Below, in pieces: positions 24,410-45,808 of a DNA stretch of 64,000 bases. A program made the translations under genes and the position numbers. The DNA lies in NCBI GenBank assembly GCA_965248435.1, contig OZ252100.1:3392001-3456000 (forward strand), read 5' to 3'. A model generated the notes under the pieces. The model saw nothing but the letters and a program-made list of their open reading frames with translations, made no database searches and was not told the DNA's origin. The stretch comes from Candidatus Latescibacterota bacterium. GTDB lineage: Bacteria > Latescibacterota > UBA2968 > GCA-2709665. Numbering within the stretch: the first letter of the stretch is position 1; each line of letters starts with the position of its first letter.

Positions 24410-25411
24410 CTATCCGTCTATCTCGGCGAGGAGGCGATCGAAGGCCTCGGTGACGTGATGGACCTGGATCCAGCGCATGGCCTCGGCGTTTCGGGGGATT
24501 TCGGGTGGGGGCTGGACAACGATGCTGTGCTGCCCATTCGGATAGGGCCCCCACTGGCGACTGCACGTCGGGCCGAACAGGGCGACCATCGGGGTGCGAA
24601 CCGCCGCGCCTAGGTGCATGGGAAACGAGTCGATCGTAACCAAACAGGTGCTCCCTTTTAGCAGCTCCGCAGATTGGAGGAGGCTGAACCTCCCCGCAAG
24701 ATTCAGGGCCTCCGTCCGCATATGGCTTCTGATCGCTTCCACGTAATCTCGCTCGGAAGGACCCCCGTTGATCAGGACGTGATATCCGCGATCGGCGATG
24801 TGGTCCGCGACACTCGCCCATCGTGTTGTTGCCCAGTGTTTTGAAGGTTTGCGGGCAGTGACCCCGAGTACGACAGCAGGCGAGACGTCGTTCAAGAGAT
24901 CTCTGACAGGCGCCTGATTCTCGGCCTCGGGAAAGAGGCGAAAACAGGGCGAGGGTTGGGCCCCATCCGACCCCGGGATGAGGTCCATGTAGCAATCCAC
25001 AACGTGTTTTTCCCACGAATAGGAGACGATGTGAGACCACGCCCAGCAAGACTTCGGCGTGTTGAACCCCCATCGCTCTCGTCCACCGCAAAGACGGGCA
25101 AATGCCGCGGTCTTGAACGAAACAGGGAGTGTGAAAATTCGATCGAAACTACGAGCTCGAACCTGGCTGAGGGAAGGCAACAGGCACTTCCAGGGGCCCA
25201 TCGCGCCGTTTGCGAGCCAGGGCAGGTCACAGGCGATGATCTGATCGGCGTCAGGATTTCCTCTGAGGAGATCGGTTGACCAGGACCCCAAAAGGACACA
25301 AAGGTGAGCATCCGGAAACCTCTTGCGCGTGCCGTGGATGAACGGCGTGGAGAGCAGCACGTCTCCGAGGTGATTCGGCTGAAGGATCAGAATCTGTTCG
25401 CGAGTGGTCAA
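24410..25411 (-). CDS. Glycosyltransferase family 9 (heptosyltransferase-like)
   Basis: HLGDVLLSTP, K.W...RW, DSFPMHLGAA..TP.VALFGPT...WGP. Confidence 0.88.
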   Translation of the reverse strand: MTTREQILILQPNHLGDVLLSTPFIHGTRKRFPDAHLCVLLGSWSTDLLRGNPDADQIIACDLPWLANGAMGPWKCLLPSLSQVRARSFDRIFTLPVSFKTAAFARLCGGRERWGFNTPKSCWAWSHIVSYSWEKHVVDCYMDLIPGSDGAQPSPCFRLFPEAENQAPVRDLLNDVSPAVVLGVTARKPSKHWATTRWASVADHIADRGYHVLINGGPSERDYVEAIRSHMRTEALNLAGRFSLLQSAELLKGSTCLVTIDSFPMHLGAAVRTPMVALFGPTCSRQWGPYPNGQHSIVVQPPPEIPRNAEAMRWIQVHHVTEAFDRLLAEIDG

Positions 25412-34060: not shown

Positions 34061-34657
34061 TCATTTGATCGCCTGCAAGCGGAACAAGATATCCCGAGCT
34101 GGGATCACGAAGGTGAAGAAGGCTTCATACAGTTCCGGATAGAGGTTCACGGCCGACTCGACACCAAGTTTCCGCAACAGGGGGTTGAGGGTGATTCGAA
34201 GATCGGTCACCTGGAACTTCTGGGCGACCGGTAGACCGTATTTGATTTCGTCGATCCTGTAGAAGCATTCCAGGAGACGTCGCATCCTCGGCTTCTTCCT
34301 GGACGGTCTGGCCAGGAAGTGGAAAGTACGGATGCTGAGATGGTGCCGATGGGTTGGGTCGGCGTAGGAACTCGCAGAGGAGAAGTGGGGCGTCGCTCCC
34401 TCTACAGCGGCGCCCGGCGTGGCGATTCTCCAGATCTCTTCCATGGCATCCGGGATGTCGGTGATATGCTCGATCACGTGGGTAAGGACGATCAGATCGA
34501 ATGCGCCGTCCCTGAACGGATAGTAGCGTCGGTTCAGATCGGCGATCACGTCTGCTGCAGATCCGCGCGTGAGGTCTGCGCCGATGGCCCCTTTCCGTTT
34601 GCTGGATCCGCATCCCAGGTCGAGAATTCGCACGGCGTTTGCTCTATCCTTCTGCAA
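34061..34657 (-). CDS. SAM-dependent methyltransferase (type 11-like)
   Basis: LDLGCG, YPF.DG.FD, HVIEH, E.WRI..PG, DPTH. Confidence 0.85.
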   Translation of the reverse strand: MQKDRANAVRILDLGCGSSKRKGAIGADLTRGSAADVIADLNRRYYPFRDGAFDLIVLTHVIEHITDIPDAMEEIWRIATPGAAVEGATPHFSSASSYADPTHRHHLSIRTFHFLARPSRKKPRMRRLLECFYRIDEIKYGLPVAQKFQVTDLRITLNPLLRKLGVESAVNLYPELYEAFFTFVIPARDILFRLQAIK

Positions 34658-36260
34658 GGTTCGAGGACCGAGACCATTTGATCAGGGCTCGGGCAGTGAG
34701 GACCGATCCGAGGAAAAGCGCCGCAACCGCAGTGTAGACGACGACTGTGGCAAGGTTTCCAAGGAAGCCCGTGTGCAGGGCATTGACCCACCATACGTCG
34801 ATCAGATCGTAGGTGCTCATGGAGACCAGCACACCCTCCGATCCGGACGAGGGGATGGGATAGTTCAGGGAGTGTCCACCCGTCAGTCTGGAGACGGCAG
34901 AGATGAGCTGGAAGAAGGTGCCTGCGATGGGAGAGAGTCCCGGGGAAAAGACCAGGTCTGTAAAATGCCTTGGGTCGTAGGTGAAGTGTCCGATCCGGTT
35001 TTCGATCACAAAACGGGTGAAGAAGTGAACGTTCATGAGGGTTGCGGGGAGCTGAATCAATCCCCCGATGACGGCAAGTGTTTTGATGACGGCTTCCCTC
35101 GCTCCCCCGTTCTCGATCAGGCCGCCCAAGGGGAGAACGAGGAACGGCAGTATGGGCACCAAATACCGTGGACCCCACGAACCCCCGTGCCACGCTCGGA
35201 AGCAGGCGAAAAAGATCAAGTGAACTGCGATGAGCGCCGTGAAGAGCATCGCTTCTTCCCTGTGAGCTTTGCCGAACCGTAGTATCGCGATCGGAACGAA
35301 GAAAGCGGCCGGGAGGAAAAGGAGCAGTCCTCGACCCGCACTGAACAGCAAGCCGTAGACCGCGGTCACGATGTTAAACGGTGAGAAACTGAAGTAGCCC
35401 CCCTCCGCACCCGTCCAGAATTCGGATGCCACATCGTCCAGGTGATAGCCAGTTTTCAGGATGCTTCCATAACGCACCCAGTTGTGCCAGGCGATGAGCA
35501 GCCCGAACAGGATCAATGGGATGAGCAGGGCCGCCCAGGCCCTGAGCTGCCGGCCGCGCGTCAAAGATTTCGTGCAAGACCAGAGGTAGACGGCAAGACA
35601 GGGCAGGACGATCACGATGTAGAGTTTGGTCGCCGCTGACAGGCCCAACAAAGCCCCGGACCACGCCAAGCAGGACTGGGCTCCGGACTGGCGATACTGG
35701 TGAAGGGCCGTGACCGTGCCCAGCAGGGTGAGGCCAATCAGGGGTTCAGAGAAGCCGTATCCGGCATAGGGGAATACCATGGACCCCACGCCGAAGACCC
35801 CCGTTATCCAGATGAGTGTGGGCCGCCCGAAGGAGAGCTGACGCGCCAATTTGAAGAAGACGATGCACCAGAGTGCGCAGACCGCGACGTTCGTGATCGA
35901 GGTCGTGAACATCGTGACATAGTCTCGAGGAACGCCTGGAACGAGTCGGGCGATCAGACGACCTACGGCATAGAATGGAACTTCGACCAGGGCTTGTCCG
36001 AGGCCATACTTCGAATAGCTTCTTCCACTCCCGGCAATCACCCCGCCTCCCTGATCGTGGGTGTACTGGTTGTACATCTCTTCAATCAGGAATGGGCGGT
36101 CGCCGATGATCAGGTCGCCATCAAGGACGATACTTTCAGCGGTCAGGTAGTTCCAGAAGCCGTCCCCACCGTAGTGGCCGCCGGCGGTGAGGAGGTAGAT
36201 GGAAAAGAAAAACGCCCCTATGCCTAAAGGGACGGATCGCCGCTCACCCGTGTGCAACAT
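34644..36260 (-). CDS. Polytopic membrane protein, probable GT-C (ArnT/PMT-like) glycosyltransferase
   Basis: YGGDG first loop, SKYG.GQ, FSEP, G.LFS.GRG, W.GG.WGPRYL.P. Confidence 0.7.
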   Translation of the reverse strand: MLHTGERRSVPLGIGAFFFSIYLLTAGGHYGGDGFWNYLTAESIVLDGDLIIGDRPFLIEEMYNQYTHDQGGGVIAGSGRSYSKYGLGQALVEVPFYAVGRLIARLVPGVPRDYVTMFTTSITNVAVCALWCIVFFKLARQLSFGRPTLIWITGVFGVGSMVFPYAGYGFSEPLIGLTLLGTVTALHQYRQSGAQSCLAWSGALLGLSAATKLYIVIVLPCLAVYLWSCTKSLTRGRQLRAWAALLIPLILFGLLIAWHNWVRYGSILKTGYHLDDVASEFWTGAEGGYFSFSPFNIVTAVYGLLFSAGRGLLLFLPAAFFVPIAILRFGKAHREEAMLFTALIAVHLIFFACFRAWHGGSWGPRYLVPILPFLVLPLGGLIENGGAREAVIKTLAVIGGLIQLPATLMNVHFFTRFVIENRIGHFTYDPRHFTDLVFSPGLSPIAGTFFQLISAVSRLTGGHSLNYPIPSSGSEGVLVSMSTYDLIDVWWVNALHTGFLGNLATVVVYTAVAALFLGSVLTARALIKWSRSSNLAEG

Positions 36261-37377
36261 CCCGTTTCCTCAATTCTGAAAGGACCTCTTCGTAAACGCT
36301 CTCCTGGTCTCGGGCGATTCGATCCCAGGAAAAGCGCTTTGCCCAGAGTTTGCCGGACCGGCCTAGCCGCCGGCGATATTCCGAGTCCTCTGTCAGCTGA
36401 CGCATGGCTTCCTGGAGGGCATCCGTGTCTTCGGGGGGCACCAAGATTCCTGTCTTGCCGTGCACGACGGCATCGGTCAGCCCCGGGATGCGGGTTCCGA
36501 TTACGGCCTTCCCGGCCGCAGCCGCCTCGACGGCCGTGATGCCCCATCCCTCATACCGGGAGGGCATGCACGTAAACAACGCACCGCCTAGGAGTTCCCG
36601 TTTCGTTTCCTCGGAGACCGTACCGCGTATCTCGACGTGTTCGGTGATCTCGAGGGCATCACACAGGGATGTCAACTGTCGTAGCCGCTTCGGGGTGGCC
36701 CGACCGGCCAGCACGAGGCGCACATCCGGGTAATCTGCACGGAAACGGGTGAAGGCCTTTAGAAGGAGGTCGATGCCCTTGACATACACGTCGAAGCGGC
36801 CGACGTAGAAGATGTAGTCCTGCTCTGAAACCGGGACGTCGAAACAGGCGTTATCGACACCTGTATAGACCAGGTGAAGGCCCTGCGTACCCCGCGCTCG
36901 CGAGATCTGTTTCGCCACGCTCGGGGAGATCGTCACGAGATGGTCGAAGGATCTGAGGGTGTATTCTTCCGCGATTCTTGCTGGAAGACCGAGAAGGGGG
37001 AACTTCCTGACTGCGTGACCCGCGATCCGGTGAAAAAACTCCAGGACGCATCTTCGTCGGAGGCCCGCAGACGCGAGAATGGGGGAGAATGCAGAGAAGT
37101 TGTAGACCCAGAGGTCGAAGGTTTCCCGGGCCAGAAGGGATGACGCGAGAGCCGAGAAACTCAGCCGGCTGAGGAGATAAGATCGGTCGGTGCCCACGCG
37201 ACGGATTCTGACCCCGTGGCGGATCTCCTGGGCGGCCGCGCCTGGATAGGCACCGGAAAGAAGGGTAATGTCGTGCCGCTGGGCCAGGCGGCGACTGATT
37301 TCGAGGGCCCTTACCGCGCCTCCGCCTCCGCACCAGGGGTTCTGCACATCGTCGTATATGGCGTGTAGAATCCTCAC
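36244..37377 (-). CDS. Glycosyltransferase family 4
   Basis: GGG, YVGR....KGID, PSRYEGWGITAVEA. Confidence 0.9.
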   Translation of the reverse strand: MRILHAIYDDVQNPWCGGGGAVRALEISRRLAQRHDITLLSGAYPGAAAQEIRHGVRIRRVGTDRSYLLSRLSFSALASSLLARETFDLWVYNFSAFSPILASAGLRRRCVLEFFHRIAGHAVRKFPLLGLPARIAEEYTLRSFDHLVTISPSVAKQISRARGTQGLHLVYTGVDNACFDVPVSEQDYIFYVGRFDVYVKGIDLLLKAFTRFRADYPDVRLVLAGRATPKRLRQLTSLCDALEITEHVEIRGTVSEETKRELLGGALFTCMPSRYEGWGITAVEAAAAGKAVIGTRIPGLTDAVVHGKTGILVPPEDTDALQEAMRQLTEDSEYRRRLGRSGKLWAKRFSWDRIARDQESVYEEVLSELRKRDVAHG

Positions 37378-38390
37378 GCATTCAGACCATCGGCGGCCTG
37401 CAGCAGCTCCTGTTTGGAGATGGCCGCGACACCGATTTTTCGGACGACAACGCCGCCTGCAAGGTTGCCAACACAGGCTGCTTCCGCGTGCGTCGCCCCG
37501 GATACGAGCGCCGTTGTATAGACCGCGGCGGTCGTGTCTCCAGCGCCGGAGACGTCGTAGACGTCGCGTGCTGTCGCCTCGAGGTGTGCGACCTGCCCGC
37601 CCTTTTCAAACAGGCTGACGCCCTTTTCACTCCGGGTCATAAAGACCGCCTGGAGCTCGAACCGTTTGACGAGTTCGTGTCCAGTGGCGACGACGATGGC
37701 CTCGTCGTCGCCGTCCAGGTTGAGCGCCCCGAGGGCCTCGGCCTGATTGGGAGAGATGGCCGTCACGCCGTGATACTTGTCAAAATTTCTACCTTTTGGA
37801 TCGACGACCGTCGGTCGGTTCAGTCGGCGAAACAACGCTCTGACCGCATCCATCATTCCCTGCGTCACGACCCCTTTGGCGTAGTCTGACACGAAGACGG
37901 CGTCGATGTCCTCGACGTTCGAAATGTTCTCGATCAAGCGCCGCTCGACGGCTCCGGAAACTTCATCGCACACCTCCCGGTCCGCCCGGACGATATGCTG
38001 TCCCCTCCCTCTTTCCCCACCGTGCTCCAGAATTCTACGGGCGATGATGCGGGTCTTGGACGTTGTCGGCCGGGCCGGATCGGTGACGACGCCGCTCAGG
38101 TCGACCCTTTCAGCGGCCAGGAGATCCTCGAGTTTCTTTCCATCTCCATCTTCGCCGACGACGCCGACCGCGGCGATCTCCGCGCCGAGTTCGTGCAGGT
38201 TGTGGATGACGTTGGCTGCCCCTCCCGGTCGAAAAGTTTCCGACTCGATCTCGACCACAGGGACCGGCGCTTCGGGTGAAATTCGATCTGCGCGACCCCA
38301 TAGATAGTGGTCGAGCATCAGGTCGCCGATCACCAGGATGCGTTTGCCTGAGGCCAGTGAGAGGATCTCGCTAAGGCGTGACCGATCCAA
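37374..38390 (-). CDS. rfaE1: D-glycero-beta-D-manno-heptose-7-phosphate kinase (RfaE domain I / HldA)
   Basis: LVIGDLMLDHYLWG...RISPEAPVPVV, GGAANV, SDYAKGV, VDPK, DVSGAGDT; TTG start at 38390. Confidence 0.92.
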   Translation of the reverse strand: MDRSRLSEILSLASGKRILVIGDLMLDHYLWGRADRISPEAPVPVVEIESETFRPGGAANVIHNLHELGAEIAAVGVVGEDGDGKKLEDLLAAERVDLSGVVTDPARPTTSKTRIIARRILEHGGERGRGQHIVRADREVCDEVSGAVERRLIENISNVEDIDAVFVSDYAKGVVTQGMMDAVRALFRRLNRPTVVDPKGRNFDKYHGVTAISPNQAEALGALNLDGDDEAIVVATGHELVKRFELQAVFMTRSEKGVSLFEKGGQVAHLEATARDVYDVSGAGDTTAAVYTTALVSGATHAEAACVGNLAGGVVVRKIGVAAISKQELLQAADGLNA

Positions 38391-38397
38391 GCGCCTG

Positions 38398-39828
38398 CTA
38401 CCTCCCGCCCTCGAGGATGTCGCGGACGATGTCGCTGGTTGAACTGCCTTCCACAAGGGGCACGGTGGCCACCTGACCGCCTGCAGCCTCCACCTCCTCA
38501 CGGCCTACGATCTGGTCTTTGTCGTAGTCGCCGCCTTTGACGAGGGTATCGGGCATCAGCGTTTTGATCAGGTCTATGGGCGTATCTTCTTCGAAGACGC
38601 AGATGTGGTCCACGGCAGTCAGGCCGGCGAGGACCGTGGCCCTGTCCTCGACAGAGAGGATGGGCCGCCCCTTGCCTTTCAGGCGGCGGACGGAGTCGTC
38701 GCTGTTGAGTCCCAGGAAGAGCACGTCCCCGAACGCCTTGGCCTTCTGGAGGTAGGTGACGTGACCTCCGTGTAAAAGGTCGAAACAGCCGTTGGTGAAG
38801 ACCGAACTGGCTCCGAGGGATTTCAGGTTTTGTCGGATCTCGACCGCACGATCCTGGGAGACGAGCTTCTTCCGTGCGGTTTCTGACGGATCCCCCAACG
38901 CCTCGGCAAGCGCCGCTGCCAGCAGGGGGAGGAGAAATTCGTGATGTCCCGTGAACGCGTAACCCCTCCCGCCTTTGAGCGTGGGTCTCTGCACCACGTT
39001 GACCCGTGGACGGTAGTGCTGGATCATGTCGAAATTCGCGGTGATGAATCCCGAGGGAGTACTCTTGAGATTGCGGGCGACGGTGAGCGCCTTCAGGAAG
39101 ACTTCGGGCAGGAGGACTGCCGAACCGATGTTCACGTATGCGCCGCCCTCCAGGCTTGCCACGACCGAACATAGGGTGCGAAAGTCGTCATACGAGGCCC
39201 GGCCGATCGCGGCCCCGTCGGCGGTCGGATGCTGGTGGACGATGTCGGTCCCGACGGCGACGTGGACGGTGGCGGGGAGCCCCAGCTCGAAGGCGGTGGC
39301 CAGGAGGCTCTTCCCCCTGAAAGGCAGATCCTGCTCGACGATTCTGCGGCCCAGGGCGGCGCCGTAGCCGGTGTCAACATCGTGCGCGGCGCCGTTTACG
39401 AATTCCCCCGTTTCGCGCGCCATTCCGAAGGACCCATCCTCCAGACCTTCGGCCACGTCTTCCGATGTGTTTCCGGACAGCGCGATTTCCACGTCGTGGA
39501 TCGCCGTGGCGCCGTTCATCGCCAGGGCGGAGATCCAGCCTCGGTGCATCGCGTCGATCAGGATGGGACTCAGGCCGCATTTTACGACGTGCCCGCCGAC
39601 GCCAAAGAGGACCGTCTTCTCTAAACGAACCGCATCTGAAAGGTCGCGTACGAAGCTTCTGAATTCGGCGCCGGCCAGGATCTCGGGCAGGCCGATCAAG
39701 AAACCGCGAAAAGAGGCCCCTGACGCAGACGAACGTGCAAAGCCTGCCGTGGAGACCTTGCTGGCGCGCGCATCGAGAGGTCGCGTCTTGACGTCAGACA
39801 GGTCGAGGGGCTCGAACTTTCTTTTCAC
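38398..39828 (-). CDS. Fusion of a deoxyhypusine-synthase-fold domain with heptose-1-phosphate adenylyltransferase (RfaE domain II / HldC)
   Basis: C-terminal VFTNGCFDLLHGGHV.YL..AK..GD.L..GLNSD.SVRRLKG..RP, KGGDY, SSTS; N-terminal ~310 aa DHS-like. Confidence 0.8.
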   Translation of the reverse strand: MKRKFEPLDLSDVKTRPLDARASKVSTAGFARSSASGASFRGFLIGLPEILAGAEFRSFVRDLSDAVRLEKTVLFGVGGHVVKCGLSPILIDAMHRGWISALAMNGATAIHDVEIALSGNTSEDVAEGLEDGSFGMARETGEFVNGAAHDVDTGYGAALGRRIVEQDLPFRGKSLLATAFELGLPATVHVAVGTDIVHQHPTADGAAIGRASYDDFRTLCSVVASLEGGAYVNIGSAVLLPEVFLKALTVARNLKSTPSGFITANFDMIQHYRPRVNVVQRPTLKGGRGYAFTGHHEFLLPLLAAALAEALGDPSETARKKLVSQDRAVEIRQNLKSLGASSVFTNGCFDLLHGGHVTYLQKAKAFGDVLFLGLNSDDSVRRLKGKGRPILSVEDRATVLAGLTAVDHICVFEEDTPIDLIKTLMPDTLVKGGDYDKDQIVGREEVEAAGGQVATVPLVEGSSTSDIVRDILEGGR

Positions 39829-39852: not shown

Positions 39853-40446
39853 CTACAGCACACCCTTCGTAGAGGGGATACCGGATACTTCGGGATCTCG
39901 CCTGACGGCACTCCTCAATGCCCTGGCTACGGCCTTGAAGATGGCCTCCACTTCGTGGTGGGCGTTCGAGCCCCTCACGAGGTCGACGTGCAGGTTGATC
40001 ATAGCGTGATCTGCGAGCGCGCGGAAGAATTCCTGGGCGAGTGCCGCAGGGAACGCACCTACTGTTTCTTCTGACAGGGTGACATCGTAGACAAGATAGG
40101 GCCTTCCTGAAACGTCCACGACCGCCCGCGCAAGCGTTTCGTCCATGGGGACGTAACTCTGCCCGAAACGTGTGATGCCGGCCTTGTCTCCCAAGGCTTG
40201 CGCGAGCGCCTGTCCCGCGCAGATGCCGATGTCTTCCACGGTATGGTGCGCGTCGACCTCCAGGTCACCCGAACAGGTCAGCTGGAGGTCGAAGAGCGCG
40301 TGCCGCGCAAAAGTCGTGAGCATGTGGTCGAAGAATCCGATACCGGTTTTGCCGCGGCAAAGACCGGCACCATCCAGGGTTAGAGACAGGTCTATGTCGG
40401 TTTCGGTGGTCTTTCGCTTGACGCGCGCCGTACGTGGGCTGGACAT
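39853..40446 (-). CDS. hisB: Imidazoleglycerol-phosphate dehydratase
   Basis: RKTTETDI, TGIGFFDHML, DAHHTVED, PMDE, NAHHEVEAIFKA, PSTKGVL. Confidence 0.97.
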   Translation of the reverse strand: MSSPRTARVKRKTTETDIDLSLTLDGAGLCRGKTGIGFFDHMLTTFARHALFDLQLTCSGDLEVDAHHTVEDIGICAGQALAQALGDKAGITRFGQSYVPMDETLARAVVDVSGRPYLVYDVTLSEETVGAFPAALAQEFFRALADHAMINLHVDLVRGSNAHHEVEAIFKAVARALRSAVRRDPEVSGIPSTKGVL

Positions 40447-40457
40447 GAGGAACCTCT

Positions 40458-41561
40458 CTAACTCTCTTTGAGCGCTGTTTTGAGCGCAGAGAGAAATCGG
40501 TCGTTCTCCTCCGGCGTGCCGATGCTCACCCTGAGCCCGCGGGAGAGCAGGGGATAGCCGGTGACATCGCGGATGAGTACGCCCTGCTCGACCAGACTGT
40601 TGAAGACCCGCTTGGGTTCGGAGACCTCGAAAAGGATGAAGTTGGCGCTCGAAGGATAAACGCTTAGCCCTTCTGTATCCTGGAGGGCCTTAAAGACCCT
40701 GTCACGCTCGCTGCAGATGGCGGCGACTCGCTCTTTGAAGAGGTCCTTGTGCTTCAGGATCTCCAAAGCCGCCGCGTGCGAAAAGAGGTTGACGTCAAAG
40801 GGCACTTTTCCTTTCAGGATCTCGCGCGTCAGCTCGGGATGGGCCAGCAGGTAGCCGATTCGGATCCCAGCAGACGCGAACGCTTTGGAAAGCGTTTTCA
40901 AGACGATGAGGTTGGCGTGCTCTGCGAGCAGGTCGACAGCGGTGCTCCGGTTGAACTCACCGTAGGCCTCATCGACCAGGACCAGGGCGTCGGTCTCCTC
41001 GAGGATGGACCCGAGGTCCTCGTTCGACAGCGTGCATCCGGTTGGGCTGTGAGGCGAGCAGAAGAGCATCACGTGCGCCTTTTCCCGAACGGCGGCGGCG
41101 CTGATAGCGGGAATATCGAAGGTGAACCCCTGAGCGAGGTCGACCGATATGATGTTTCCACCGAAGATCCGAGCGTAGAGTCCATACAGTGAGAAACTGG
41201 GTGATGGGATGACCACGGGAGTCCCCGGTCCGACGCTGACGGCCAGGACGAGCTGGAGCAGGGTGTTGGAGCCGTTGCAGACGATCAGTCCTTCAGGATC
41301 CCAGCCCACGTGCTGTGCCAGCGCACTCACGAGGTCCATCGGCATGGGTGCAGGATAACGCGACCAGGGGCGCGCCTGGACGGACTCCAGGATCTGCCGC
41401 TTTAGATCGTCCGGCACGTCGAAAGGACTCTCGTTCTGGTTCAGCTTCACGGCGCTGTCGTGGGTCTCGAGGTGATAGCCGTCGATCGCACGAACTTCAG
41501 GTTTAATTCGGTTCAATGGGGACGATTTCAAGTCTGTTCCCAACATTAGAAGGTTCTTCAC
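40458..41561 (-). CDS. hisC: Histidinol-phosphate aminotransferase
   Basis: KLNQNESP, RYP, NGS, VDEAY.EF, KTLSKAF..AGIRIGY, RVSIGTPEEN; start uncertain. Confidence 0.92.
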   Translation of the reverse strand: MKNLLMLGTDLKSSPLNRIKPEVRAIDGYHLETHDSAVKLNQNESPFDVPDDLKRQILESVQARPWSRYPAPMPMDLVSALAQHVGWDPEGLIVCNGSNTLLQLVLAVSVGPGTPVVIPSPSFSLYGLYARIFGGNIISVDLAQGFTFDIPAISAAAVREKAHVMLFCSPHSPTGCTLSNEDLGSILEETDALVLVDEAYGEFNRSTAVDLLAEHANLIVLKTLSKAFASAGIRIGYLLAHPELTREILKGKVPFDVNLFSHAAALEILKHKDLFKERVAAICSERDRVFKALQDTEGLSVYPSSANFILFEVSEPKRVFNSLVEQGVLIRDVTGYPLLSRGLRVSIGTPEENDRFLSALKTALKES

Positions 41562-41667
41562 CCAACTTCGGGTTGGGCGTAGCAGATTACGACGAGAGAA
41601 TATTCATCCTTTTGAATCCCTAAGCCCTTCGCCCGACCCCACAACCCTATGCCTCCGGCGGCCGCAC

Positions 41668-41705
41668 AATTGCGGATTGCGGATTTGGGATTGCGGAATG
41701 AAAGG
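41668..41705 (+). repeat. 38-bp heptamer-periodic repeat, copy 1
   Basis: AATTGCGGATTGCGGATTTGGGATTGCGGAATGAAAGG, identical to 50327-50364. Confidence 0.9.
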
Positions 41706-41854
41706 CAGAAGGACGTGCTTCTCGAAGCGGCTGTTTGCAAGGGAGTCGCACACCGCGGCCCCGATGGCTTAGAGCGATTCTTTTCGCAAGTTTCAAAGAC
41801 GCCCGATTTAGCGAAGAATCTGCTAGGTTTCACGGGACGCCTTGTTTCTCAGCG

Positions 41855-43156
41855 CTACTTCTGCTGCCGGACCCGAATGGCATTGGCGTGGGCATCGAGA
41901 CCTTCCGCCTCAGCCAGCGCGATGATGTGGCCTGCGGTTTTTCGAAGTCTCCGGTCCGTATAAGAAACGACATTGATCGTTTTGAGAAACGTCTCGACTC
42001 CGACCGAAGAAGCGAATCTTGCTGCTCCGACGGTCGGCAGGATATGGTTCGTGCCGGCGTAGTAGTCGCCCACGGGCTCCGAGGAGGCCGGGCCGAGGAA
42101 GACTGCACCTGCGTTTCTAATCGCTTCGAGGTGCTGCCAGGGATCTTCCACGAGCAGTTCGATATGTTCGGGAGCGATCTGGTTCGACAGATCGATGCCT
42201 TCAGCGAGGTCCTCTACGACGACGATGGCGCCGAAGGCGTCCAATGCCTTTTGGATTGCGTCCCGATGTGCCAGGTCGGTCAACTGTCGCTGAGTTTCCT
42301 CATCCACCTGTCGTGCGAGGTCCCGCGAAGGGGTGATGCAGATCGAGGCCTCGAAGCCGCTGCCGTGTTCCGCCTGAGAGAGGAGGTCTGCCGCCACGTG
42401 ACGAGGATCGGCCGAGTCGTCTGCAAGGACGACGATCTCACTCGGGCCGGCGATCATGTCGACTCCGACTGTCCCGAAGACGATCTTCTTCGCGATCTGC
42501 ACCGCTGGGTGCCCGGGGCCGACGAGCTTGTCCACCCTGGGAATGGTTTCCGTACCGTAAGCCAGTGCTGCTACCGCCTGCGCGCCGAAGACGCGGTAGA
42601 TCTCGTTCAGGCCCAGGATGTGTGCAGCCGCGAGGACCACAGGATGTACCGACCCGTCTTCTCGGGGAGGTGTAGCCACGCACAGGTGGGGCACGCCGGC
42701 AATCTGGGCCGGGATGACGCCCATCAGGAGCGTGGAAAAGAGCGGCGCGCTGGCACCCGGGATGAGGATCGCGGCCCGGTCGATGGGCAGGACGCGCTTC
42801 CCCAGGGAAACCCCGTCGCCGTCTTCGATGAACCAGGAGGTCTCCCGATGAGATTCGTGAAACCGACGGATGTTGTCGGCTGCCGCTTTGAGGATTTCAA
42901 CGAGGCCGACGTCGGCATCCCGGTAGGCTGCTTCGATTTCGCTTTCTGAAACCCGGAGGTCCTCCTCGCCGAGCAAAGCGCCGTCGAACTGCTGTGTGTA
43001 CTCGATGACGGCATCGTTTCCCCTGATTCGGACATCGGCAACAATTTCCCTGACCGCGGCCTCGAGCTCAGGGTCGTAGTCTGCAGTCCTTTCCAGAATA
43101 GTCTTGATCCGCTCGGGCATCCGATCACGCTTGTAGGTCACAACTTCCATGATCAA
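41855..43156 (-). CDS. hisD: Histidinol dehydrogenase
   Basis: GAQAVAALAYGTE, DMIAGPSE, DLLSQAEH, APEH, GDYYAGTNHILPT, EGLDAH. Confidence 0.97.
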   Translation of the reverse strand: MIMEVVTYKRDRMPERIKTILERTADYDPELEAAVREIVADVRIRGNDAVIEYTQQFDGALLGEEDLRVSESEIEAAYRDADVGLVEILKAAADNIRRFHESHRETSWFIEDGDGVSLGKRVLPIDRAAILIPGASAPLFSTLLMGVIPAQIAGVPHLCVATPPREDGSVHPVVLAAAHILGLNEIYRVFGAQAVAALAYGTETIPRVDKLVGPGHPAVQIAKKIVFGTVGVDMIAGPSEIVVLADDSADPRHVAADLLSQAEHGSGFEASICITPSRDLARQVDEETQRQLTDLAHRDAIQKALDAFGAIVVVEDLAEGIDLSNQIAPEHIELLVEDPWQHLEAIRNAGAVFLGPASSEPVGDYYAGTNHILPTVGAARFASSVGVETFLKTINVVSYTDRRLRKTAGHIIALAEAEGLDAHANAIRVRQQK

Positions 43157-44031
43157 TAGATCACTTTGTTGAGTGGATACTCGATGATTCCGGTGGCGCC
43201 CGCTTTGATAAGCGCCGGTATCACGTCCCTCACGATCTTTTCATCCAGGATGACTTCCACGGCGATCCATTGCTCGTCGAGCAGGTTGGATATCGTCGGA
43301 TTGTTGAGCGCGGGCAGGTGTTTCACGACCGCTTCGAGGTCGGCGCGTCGCACGTTCATCTTGAGACCGACCTTGGCTTCCGCCTCGAAGGCACCGACCA
43401 GCAAGGTGGCTATGTTCAAAGCCTTTTCCTTCTTCCAGGGGTCATCCCACGCCTGGCGATTCGCGATAAACCGCGGAGTGGACTCGAACAAAGTTTCTAT
43501 GACTCTGAGCCTGTTCGCGCGAAGTGAAGAGCCGGTCTCGGTCAGTTCCACGATCGCGTCCACGAGACCCGGAACCCTGACCTTGGCCTCCGTCGACCCC
43601 CAGGAGTATTCGACTTCGGCCTCCAACCCCTTTTCCTTGAGGAAGCGGCGCGTCATTCCTACGAGCTCCGTCGCGATTCGCGTTCCCTCGAGGTCCTGGA
43701 TCGTTTTTATGGGCGACTCGTCGGGGACGGCGATCACCCAACGCACGGGCTGGGCGGTGGACCTGCTGTAGCTCAGATCGGCGATTTCAACCACGTCGGC
43801 GTCGTTTTCGAGGATCCAGTCCTTGCCGGTCAAGCCCACGTCCAGCAGCCCCCGCTCGACGTAGTGAGCGATTTCTTCCGCGCGGAGGAGCAGGCCCTGC
43901 AGCTCTGGATCATCTATGGCAGGGGTATAAGACCTGGGGTTGATTCGGATCCGGTAGCCGGCCCTGGAGAAAAGCTGCAGAGTTGATTCCTGGAGGCTTC
44001 CAGAGGGAAGGCCGATTTTTAGCGAGGACAT
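43153..44031 (-). CDS. hisG: ATP phosphoribosyltransferase (long form)
   Basis: LKIGLP.GSL, DVGLTGKDW, RIAT, GSTE, DAIVELTETGSSLRANRL, C-terminal regulatory domain. Confidence 0.96.
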   Translation of the reverse strand: MSSLKIGLPSGSLQESTLQLFSRAGYRIRINPRSYTPAIDDPELQGLLLRAEEIAHYVERGLLDVGLTGKDWILENDADVVEIADLSYSRSTAQPVRWVIAVPDESPIKTIQDLEGTRIATELVGMTRRFLKEKGLEAEVEYSWGSTEAKVRVPGLVDAIVELTETGSSLRANRLRVIETLFESTPRFIANRQAWDDPWKKEKALNIATLLVGAFEAEAKVGLKMNVRRADLEAVVKHLPALNNPTISNLLDEQWIAVEVILDEKIVRDVIPALIKAGATGIIEYPLNKVIY

Positions 44032-44263: not shown

Positions 44264-45721
44264 TCATCCACGAGTCTGGCTTTCGAGAAATCCGATCAGT
44301 CCGTTCAGGGAGTTGTGAATTTCCCGGAAGTGCTTGTTCTCTTTGAAGTCGCGGATGAGTTCCCACCGATCGTAGGTGAAGGTATCTCTAGAGTATTCAC
44401 TGGGGTCATAGTAGAATTTCATCCCGAAACCGGTGATCTCCGCCGCCTCCTCTTCTTCCTTCGGGGGCTTCATCTCGGTCCGGACGATCTTTGAAAGGAT
44501 CTGGATCCTCATCGGGACTGCGGGTTCGTAGACCTCGGTCTCCCGATTAAACCTGAGCTTCGGATAGAAGTTGAGGAGATAACAGAGCCCCTCGAGGGCC
44601 TGGATCTTGTCCTCGACTGGCATCTCTTTGTGGTCTTCACCCAGCGCGTAATCGAGGAAGGCCTTCGACGCCGAGATCTTGACCCCCCCCACGCCGAAAT
44701 CGAGCATTTCAGCCCCGATTCCTGCCTCCTTTCGGATGTCTCCGCTCGTCCTGACCGTCATGTTCTCGGTCCCGACACGGGTGATTTCTGAAATCAGGTC
44801 GTAGTATTCGGTGGGGTGATCTGAGGAGATACGCGTATAAAAGCCCAGGACGATCGTGTCTCCGTCGCCCAGCCCAAATGGGTCATCCCGACTGCTGGAC
44901 ATGTTGGAAGGTTTCCGGATGTAGAATGTGCGGGAATCCTCCTTGGACGTTTCCAGACCCAGGACGTCTGATTTGTTCATCTCCAGAAGGGAAACCTTGT
45001 TTGATTTCTCGTCCATGTGAGGCTTTCCAACGAAGACGACTCGGCCATCCCTCGTGTTGGCCCTCAGGCCGTTTTTCATGAATTTGACGACATCCTCAGG
45101 CTCCTGACCGTTCAGGTCTGTATCGGTGTCGTAGGGTATCAACTGAAGTTCGCTGATGTTCGTGGGCAGGCTGCCTGTTTCCGGAAATTCCATGTCCGTT
45201 TTCGAGATGTAGAGATCGAAGAGGACCTGAGAGTAGACACGCATTCCGCCGTGTCCGGGCTTGTGGGAATACCGGAGAAACTGGCGTTTATCGCTCTTCC
45301 GGATGACCCCAATCGGTCTTACCGCGTAGCCCGTCGGGAGTCGGGGGTCAAGATCTCCCCGGATCTCATTGGGGAAATTGATCCGCCCCATCACGCGGCA
45401 GTCCAGGGTGTGCGGAATACGGTTGTGCAGGAACCAGAGGTGGACAATCTCGTCTTTCCCCTTGAAGAAGGACTGATTATCCTCGGCCTTGATGGCGTCG
45501 GGCGTGCTGATATAGAAGGCCTTGTTTTGAACGAGGGGCTTCTCGCCGTGCTTGAAAATGAAGGCCCGGCCCAGGTCCTCGGTAGATTCCTCCCCCTCTG
45601 GGGTCTTCAGGAGGCTGCAGTTGGCCGAGCTTGGCTCCATGTCGACCAGCTTTTCGAGGATGCTGTCGACCGAGGGTTTTTTTCGCCCTCCTGCACCCTT
45701 TTTGAATGGGTTGAATGGCAT
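44264..45721 (-). CDS. Hypothetical protein, putative split PilZ/YcgR-like protein (paralog B)
   Basis: RQFLR and DFGVGG motifs; aligns along its length with 9198-10637; start set at ATG 45721 because the ORF-track TTG is the promoter -35 box. Confidence 0.6.
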   Translation of the reverse strand: MPFNPFKKGAGGRKKPSVDSILEKLVDMEPSSANCSLLKTPEGEESTEDLGRAFIFKHGEKPLVQNKAFYISTPDAIKAEDNQSFFKGKDEIVHLWFLHNRIPHTLDCRVMGRINFPNEIRGDLDPRLPTGYAVRPIGVIRKSDKRQFLRYSHKPGHGGMRVYSQVLFDLYISKTDMEFPETGSLPTNISELQLIPYDTDTDLNGQEPEDVVKFMKNGLRANTRDGRVVFVGKPHMDEKSNKVSLLEMNKSDVLGLETSKEDSRTFYIRKPSNMSSSRDDPFGLGDGDTIVLGFYTRISSDHPTEYYDLISEITRVGTENMTVRTSGDIRKEAGIGAEMLDFGVGGVKISASKAFLDYALGEDHKEMPVEDKIQALEGLCYLLNFYPKLRFNRETEVYEPAVPMRIQILSKIVRTEMKPPKEEEEAAEITGFGMKFYYDPSEYSRDTFTYDRWELIRDFKENKHFREIHNSLNGLIGFLESQTRG

Positions 45722-45779
45722 TACATCTGTCCCAAGTTCCGAATCTATACGGGCATACGTCAACCGAGGGTATTTGTAA

Positions 45780-45808
45780 ACCTTACAATAATATATATCG
45801 TTTGTCAA
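45780..45808 (-). promoter_or_regulatory. sigma70 promoter for paralog B
   Basis: TTGACA-17bp-TAAGGT. Confidence 0.6.

Follow-up and report, generated by a model that had tools for sequence, protein, structure and literature searches.

Why a domain predicted to fold like deoxyhypusine synthase (DHS) should be joined to an enzyme of ADP-heptose synthesis is the question raised by one gene in a 64,000-nucleotide (nt) stretch, here called the window, of the genome of a Candidatus Latescibacterota bacterium (contig OZ252100.1, positions 3,392,001 to 3,456,000). The gene lies on the minus strand at 38398..39828 and, from a GTG start, forms a single uninterrupted open reading frame (ORF) of 476 amino acids (aa). 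A first-pass annotation of the window had already described it as one continuous frame; the ORF list agrees, and all three sequence blocks quoted there, GAYVNIGSAV included, are present in the translation. The pathway to which its C-terminal part belongs is taught as a series of five enzymes, GmhA, HldA, GmhB, HldC and HldD, and ADP-heptose and its precursors build the inner core of lipopolysaccharide (LPS) and act as innate-immune signals. Our analysis leads us to propose, tentatively, that the N-terminal part, a member of the GSU2086 family, is a nicotinamide adenine dinucleotide (NAD)-type tailoring enzyme that stands in place of HldD, probably a heptose C6 epimerase.

Profile searches divided the protein into two domains. 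The C-terminal domain (residues 333-471; 38416..38832, minus strand) scores 191.1 bits with TIGR02199 (rfaE_dom_II), the model for the D-glycero-beta-D-manno-heptose 1-phosphate adenylyltransferase HldC. This lies above the equivalog-domain cut-off of 181.5 and upholds the original assignment of this part to RfaE domain II. It is also matched from residue 344 by PF01467 (cytidylyltransferase-like; 55 bits), and about 10 residues into this match stands HGGH, in agreement with the HxGH-type nucleotidyltransferase signature expected near the start of an HldC domain. The N-terminal domain (residues 7-306; 38911..39810, minus strand) is matched by the NCBIfam model NF052581, "GSU2086 family protein", over profile positions 1-301 of 301, with 394.6 bits against a cut-off of 250; a whole-genome profile search scored this fused copy at 396.2 bits, with agreeing coordinates. 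Apart from a sub-threshold resemblance to the ArgZ-like PF21570 (16.4 bits versus 27), the cytidylyltransferase-like domain was all that Pfam recognized in the fusion protein, and no short-chain dehydrogenase/reductase (SDR) or HldD model was found among its 9 NCBIfam matches or its Pfam matches. Compared with HldC/HldE of Escherichia coli, the C-terminal 140 aa pass the HldC cut-off and the kinase half is the next gene; in HldE the kinase is fused N-terminally of HldC, whereas here the GSU2086 domain occupies that place and the kinase is encoded separately. The GSU2086 family has already been named by NCBI, without a function, and is unstudied rather than unrecognised; source records label its stand-alone forms "hypothetical protein" or "deoxyhypusine synthase".

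The same fusion recurs in other genomes. Of the 8,000 candidates scored in a homologue search, 7,996 have a match to the N-terminal region at E ≤ 1e-3, and 44 of the 120 homologue clusters listed carry the HldC fusion (PF01467), mostly as proteins of 473-480 aa with 64-97% identity. Several of these fusion homologues sit on contigs of 4.7-8.1 Mb, and on these grounds an assembly artefact was rejected. Open frames of about 480 aa also recur in the window's own phylum. The remaining 76 listed homologues stand alone (311-354 aa, 53-63% identity), in records labelled with many phyla.

An AlphaFold model of the N-terminal domain, built on an alignment of 28 sequences, contains a six-stranded parallel sheet and has a mean predicted local distance difference test (pLDDT) score of 89.6 and a predicted template modelling (pTM) score of 0.87. 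In a Foldseek search of the PDB, the check that the first-pass annotation had proposed, DHS, ArgZ and 3c2q lead the matches (E 4.6e-8 to 1e-7, template modelling [TM] scores 0.52-0.64, 12-16% identity), the first rank being held by deoxyhypusine synthases (7cmc_A; E 4.6e-8, TM 0.61, 12% identity). VIA-align against 48,161 representative chains gave Z scores of 21.2 for AgrE, 19.8 for 3c2q and 18.9-19.6 for three DHS entries, followed by a sirtuin at 12.7. The C-domain of AgrE/ArgZ (PDB 6lrf and 6juy; PF21570) and the archaeal LOR/SDH-like protein 3c2q are the best structural and PDB profile matches, although the domain falls below the PF21570 threshold; the sequence-profile search of the PDB itself was weak, with best E values of 0.0045-0.03 for AgrE/ArgZ and 3c2q over profile positions 57-120. 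Neighbours in the ESM Atlas were unnamed clusters or ones named "putative deoxyhypusine synthase".

By the model, the N-terminal domain is DHS-like in its Rossmann fold, yet by sequence it is not a member of the DHS family. The fold is shared with DHS (PF01916; PDB 1dhs, 7cmc and 8put) at a Foldseek probability of 1.00, TM 0.61-0.64 and Z 18.9-19.6 over about 256-259 aligned residues, but identity is 11-14% and every DHS family cut-off is missed. The DHS model NF002630 matches weakly on residues 70-120 (E 6.2e-4; 19.1 bits against a cut-off of 364), Pfam DS (PF01916) does not match the fusion protein at E ≤ 0.01, and a string search of the 476-aa protein did not find SWGK, the motif given in the first-pass annotation, which had likewise described a DHS-like domain lacking it. 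It is on the NF002630 score and the missing SWGK that family membership fails.

Over the 28 aligned sequences, 47 columns are invariant, and many of them hold His, Asp, Glu, Lys, Arg or Tyr just after predicted strands, a pattern such as would be expected for an enzyme. DHS binds NAD at positions after strands, and both DHS and the C-domain of AgrE use NAD+ as a recycled oxidant. By analogy, NAD(P)+ is probably held by the GSU2086 domain as well. AgrE is described, in the available text of PMC8262935, as a bifunctional arginine dihydrolase/ornithine cyclodeaminase; its chemistry is that of amino acids, in contrast to the sugar chemistry proposed for the GSU2086 domain.

The fusion partners found across the GSU2086 family are largely heptose enzymes. 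An exhaustive search over 1.84 billion representatives yielded 2,564 family clusters at 50% identity that match at E ≤ 1e-3, and 17 multi-domain representatives were scanned for partner domains. HldC is the partner in P0131 and P0136, where it is C-terminal, and in P0182 and P0250, where it is N-terminal; P0181 contains the whole of HldE, P0219 the HldA kinase, and P0139 and P0215 contain GmhA, in both domain orders. A GmhB-like HAD-IIIA domain is the partner in P0224, and GmhB-like HAD fusions occur also in the long forms P0305 and P0307, while P0205 combines a DUF89-type (damage-control-type) phosphatase with HldC. Two GSU2086 domains were found in three of the 17 proteins, and four contain no second family. 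A search for longer forms gave 240 proteins at E ≤ 1e-20, 120 of which were listed and classed: 77 carry GmhA-type SIS domains, 5 HldC with HAD, KdsB-like or DUF89 domains, 1 LpxK and 7 miscellaneous partners. The SDR epimerase family PF01370 occurs in none of the 120 long forms listed, and no SDR/HldD fusion was seen in the 17 proteins scanned. The other 30 long forms (P0269-P0298) are Paenibacillus/Bacillus-type records of 658-909 aa with weak ArgZ/DS matches only; one that was scanned (P0122) is a tandem pair of GSU2086 domains, and to our knowledge the Paenibacillus/Bacillus hosts of these long forms have no LPS.

Gene neighbourhoods point in the same direction. Relatives are encoded in 597 genomic stretches, of which the best 80 loci were kept; ORFs were called and clustered, and cluster representatives were named by NCBIfam (30 largest neighbour clusters considered, 19 representatives scanned). 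The largest neighbour cluster is GmhA, present in 40 of the 80 loci and in 37 of them no more than 300 nt away, usually as the adjacent upstream gene in the same orientation. One of HldE, HldA and HldC lies beside the GSU2086 gene in about ten loci, and at least 47 of the 80, from many phyla, have some heptose gene within 7 kb. These counts are lower bounds, since the greedy ORF caller put an antisense ORF in place of the true gene in some loci. An alternative SDR epimerase encoded nearby was considered and rejected, as an SDR-epimerase-like ORF lies within 7 kb in only 4 of the 80 loci. Downstream of the GSU2086 gene in Desulfobacterota-labelled loci among L012-L091, hemC is found in 21 loci and a cobA-hemD fusion in 27, a recurrence that is probably lineage synteny.

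The family member after which NF052581 is named, GSU2086 of Geobacter sulfurreducens, has in common with the window's domain a full-length profile match and a heptose-operon context; it stands alone, whereas the window's domain is fused to HldC. In PMC5585712, the one paper found in open-access text to name GSU2086, the Geobacter gene order is GSU2084 (gmhB), GSU2085 (hldE), GSU2086 and GSU2087 (gmhA), and the fitness values from transposon sequencing (Tn-seq) are -3.1 for hldE, -3.2 for GSU2086 and -3.7 for gmhA, with GSU2086 given in the table as a hypothetical protein. The strings hldD, rfaD, gmhD and 6-epimerase are absent from six supplement files of that paper, file 7 not being among those searched. 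A role of the domain in nucleotide-heptose synthesis, as the first-pass annotation had suggested, is supported by recurrent fusions to heptose genes, a conserved gmhA/hldE neighbourhood and Tn-seq values like those of its Geobacter neighbours, and all the tests made of that suggestion spoke for it.

Which step of the pathway the domain might serve is indicated by phylogenetic profiles, in which HldD and GSU2086 were counted as present when they scored above the curated cut-off. Among 50 GSU2086-positive genomes behind the loci, HldD exceeds its cut-off in 3, with bimodal scores (417-443 versus ≤152 bits), and GmhB-like matches at E ≤ 1e-10 occur in 46. In eight genomes with Nitrospirota-type labels (G022, G024, G025, G027, G032, G036, G041 and G042), the GmhB-like match lies within frames of 541-649 aa, which suggests further GmhB fusions. 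An even sample of 201 genomes from the phylum of G001 contains GSU2086 in 131 and HldD in 46, both in 9 (30 expected) and neither in 33, with an odds ratio of 0.066 and a naive Fisher p of 4e-13, genomes being treated as independent. HldC (E ≤ 1e-30) is present in 192 of these 201, and the HldC-positive genomes divide into 9 with both, 117 with GSU2086 only, 37 with HldD only and 29 with neither. The phylum of G038 (151 genomes) has GSU2086 in 49 and HldD in 31, both in 2 (10 expected) and neither in 73 (odds ratio 0.107, p 4e-4, again with genomes treated as independent); leaving out three genomes flagged unpublished changes the table to 2/46/29/71, and an HldC-like match is found in 147 of the 151. 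The window's own phylum has GSU2086 in 108 of 151 genomes and offers no contrast, because HldD is present in 0 of the 151.

Collectively, the GSU2086 domain co-occurs and fuses with GmhA, HldA, GmhB and HldC, and it avoids only HldD. The first-pass annotation had proposed profiling the domain against gmhA, gmhB and hldD so that an anti-correlation would name the replaced step, and it is hldD rather than gmhA or gmhB that is named. The classes of genomes that have HldC and neither of the two genes indicate that the GSU2086 family and HldD both mark tailoring steps. HldD (ADP-L-glycero-D-manno-heptose 6-epimerase; TIGR02197) would share its proposed place in the pathway with the GSU2086 domain, and the two are mutually exclusive across genomes beyond expectation; HldD has an SDR fold, in contrast to the DHS-like fold of the GSU2086 domain, and there is no sequence or fold relationship between them.

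The window's own genome fits this distribution. With all 36 candidates scored across the genome, the best HldD match reaches 139.2 bits against a cut-off of 274.6, and none of 25 SDR matches lies within the window range. The sole GmhA-like match of the whole genome is at C1:118213, outside the window and 3.3 Mb away (120.4 bits versus 209.45). The GmhB model TIGR00213 has no match in the whole genome, and HAD-IIIA gives only a weak match (52.5 bits; C1:4297440). The initial remark that gmhA, gmhB and hldD are missing from the window agrees with these whole-genome searches, which place none of them there.

To the observed domain architecture, family membership, fold, heptose-gene linkage and anti-correlation with HldD, we add an inferred cofactor, reaction and substrate. 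The N-terminal domain would act in the ADP-heptose pathway as a fifth component, itself catalytic, with a DHS/AgrE fold and probably a held NAD(P)+, and would most likely take the tailoring step of HldD, inverting D-glycero-D-manno-heptose at C6 by way of a short-lived 6-keto intermediate. Such a C6 epimerisation on a bound nicotinamide fits the mechanism of the structural relatives. The substrate may be ADP-heptose delivered by the fused HldC domain, as the fusion to HldC suggests, or a heptose phosphate just after GmhA; heptose 7-phosphate is suggested by the commoner fusion and adjacency to GmhA. In the window, the putative operon comprises the GSU2086-HldC fusion, then the HldA kinase and then glycosyltransferases.

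Several observations weigh against this proposal. Likeness in fold is the one basis on which NAD dependence is suggested. The commonest fusion partner is GmhA, the first enzyme of the pathway, and not HldC, so that a role early in the pathway fits at least as well as one on ADP-heptose. GSU2086 and HldD occur together in 9 of 131, 2 of 49 and 3 of 50 GSU2086-positive genomes, and there is accordingly no strict either-or. Neither gene is found in 29 of the 192 HldC-positive genomes of the first phylum and in 73 of the 151 of the second; with classes of this size, neither gene is indispensable, and the two might exclude each other because they carry out different tailoring reactions. Related genomes count as independent in the Fisher tests, and one or a few ancient replacements could therefore yield the same tables. 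HldD was scored on the top 10-13 first-look candidates per genome both in these tables and in the window's own phylum. The configuration of the heptose in Geobacter LPS was not found in the open-access text consulted (PMC8824477, PMC11316326, PMC2996986 and PMC13252051). Finally, NF052581 includes sub-types outside heptose contexts, which means that the GSU2086-positive counts mix sub-types.

These sub-types can be seen in the window's own genome and phylum. A second GSU2086-family gene of the genome, outside the window (C1:2990020-2990946; L002:1486-2460), stands alone and matches with 380.3 bits; it shares 39% identity with the fused copy, and none of the 47 invariant columns is changed in it. 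The gene is divergent from a spermidine-synthase-like gene (PF01564, 31.7 bits), with citrate synthase and ion channel genes near. Besides the fused type, the phylum has a stand-alone type of about 330 aa, to which this second copy belongs, and a type of about 370-395 aa. The former is found between genes for a PfkB kinase and a HAD hydrolase (L094) and beside sulfotransferase, sulfatase and TIM-barrel genes (L093 and L095), and the latter adjoins thiI (L097 and L099). In the 2 genomes of the phylum of G038 that have both GSU2086 and HldD, HldC adjoins HldD and the GSU2086 match has a length typical of the stand-alone type, which hints that sub-typing would sharpen the HldD exclusion.

Mutual exclusion with HldD is just as much to be expected if a single precursor has alternative fates, and the domain may perform some other NAD-type tailoring of heptose, for instance its oxidation or deoxygenation, or an epimerisation at a different carbon, to give a nucleotide-heptose alternative to L,D-heptose. 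The heptose linkage evidence is the same for this explanation as for a C6 epimerase, the many genomes with neither gene mark both as optional steps, and paralogue sub-types keep the invariant residues in other sugar contexts (L094; L093 and L095). However, aminotransferase, dehydratase or reductase partners do not recur beside the gene in the 80 loci, and Geobacter Tn-seq values like those of hldE and gmhA suggest a step without which heptose cannot be used, as is the case for HldD in E. coli. We consider a different tailoring reaction, the main rival, possible, if rather unlikely. A lower rank still is given to a non-catalytic role, improbable in our view, in which the domain would bind a nucleotide or sugar phosphate and regulate, scaffold or channel GmhA, HldA and HldC. 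Such a partner might well be fused or adjacent to all four core enzymes with no single step preferred, and ThDP (thiamine diphosphate)-enzyme middle domains, which are in the fold hit list and have a DHS-like fold, serve as nucleotide-binding modules; a scaffold would nevertheless not be expected to avoid HldD, identity across phyla is very high (53-63% for the stand-alone forms), and the residues at the 47 invariant positions, many of them His, Asp, Glu, Lys, Arg or Tyr, look more like those of an active site.

Could the domain instead replace GmhB, the heptose-1,7-bisphosphate 7-phosphatase? The lack of a TIGR00213 match and the weak HAD-IIIA match in the window's own genome would allow it, a phosphatase joined to HldC, which acts next, would be a sensible arrangement, and many invariant residues are His and Asp. 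This idea was rejected as very improbable because GmhB-like genes occur in 46 of the 50 GSU2086-positive genomes and some family members combine the domain with a GmhB-like HAD domain (P0224, P0305 and P0307); moreover, the Geobacter operon, as given in the available parts of PMC5585712, has both gmhB and GSU2086, and the fold is unlike that of any known phosphatase. Least credible of all is an ordinary polyamine enzyme of the deoxyhypusine or homospermidine synthase type with an incidental fusion to HldC, an identity that the first-pass annotation had named as contradicting its own proposal. The DHS-like fold and the spermidine-synthase-like gene divergent from the stand-alone paralogue could be cited for it, but the sequence tests described above fall far short of the DHS cut-offs, fusions and neighbours in many phyla are heptose/LPS genes rather than translation-factor or polyamine genes, and the 30 largest neighbour clusters show no recurring polyamine gene (19 representatives scanned).

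On the reading we favour, the GSU2086 domain may carry out a step in the making of bacterial outer-membrane sugars that has been overlooked: its family is large, unstudied and fused to heptose enzymes, and it fills the gap where HldD is missing. It is quite possible, though we would not yet call it probable, that a DHS-fold enzyme acts as heptose C6 epimerase, or produces a nucleotide-heptose not described so far, in a large part of the Gram-negative phyla, including Thermodesulfobacteriota with Geobacter, Nitrospirota, Acidobacteriota, Planctomycetota, Omnitrophota, Poribacteria and the window's own phylum. If so, HldD would have undergone non-orthologous displacement, and the five-enzyme pathway of the textbooks would be only one of two solutions. 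Should the enzyme be the epimerase, the annotation rule "no HldD, hence D,D-heptose LPS" would mislead in many lineages, and the DHS fold would gain sugar-nucleotide chemistry. Within open-access text, we found neither a link between a DHS-like protein and heptose nor a non-orthologous replacement of the ADP-heptose epimerase.

The genes around the fusion include a glycan cluster on the same strand. The first-pass annotation had named a heptose kinase as the next gene, and the adjoining minus-strand ORF (listed at 37374..38501, the gene itself at 37374..38390) indeed encodes an HldA-type heptose-7-phosphate kinase (TIGR02198, 344.1 bits against a cut-off of 345; PfkB, 130.6 bits). The fusion gene ends with TAG at 38400-38398, with GGGAGG just ahead, and a TTG at 38390, 7 nt past the stop, is the likely start of the kinase; with this start, the two genes would be tightly coupled. 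The same-strand run continues with a GT4 glycosyltransferase (36244..37377; PF00534, 134.4 bits), and downstream of it follow a 538-aa, apparently membrane-spanning protein (34644-36260, minus strand; no Pfam match at E ≤ 0.01), a methyltransferase, a YfhO-like protein and more glycosyltransferases. These include, 13 kb further along the same strand in this glycan cluster, a GT9 heptosyltransferase (24413..25411; PF01075, 124.8 bits; genome match C1:3416515-3417165), the likely user of the nucleotide-heptose. On the other side, a 514-aa ORF (44264-45808, minus strand) that has no Pfam match at E ≤ 1e-6 lies between hisG and the uvrC region, and directly upstream of the fusion gene, across a gap of 24 nt, lie hisG, hisD, hisC and hisB, the last with its IGPD part only (39853-44031, minus strand).

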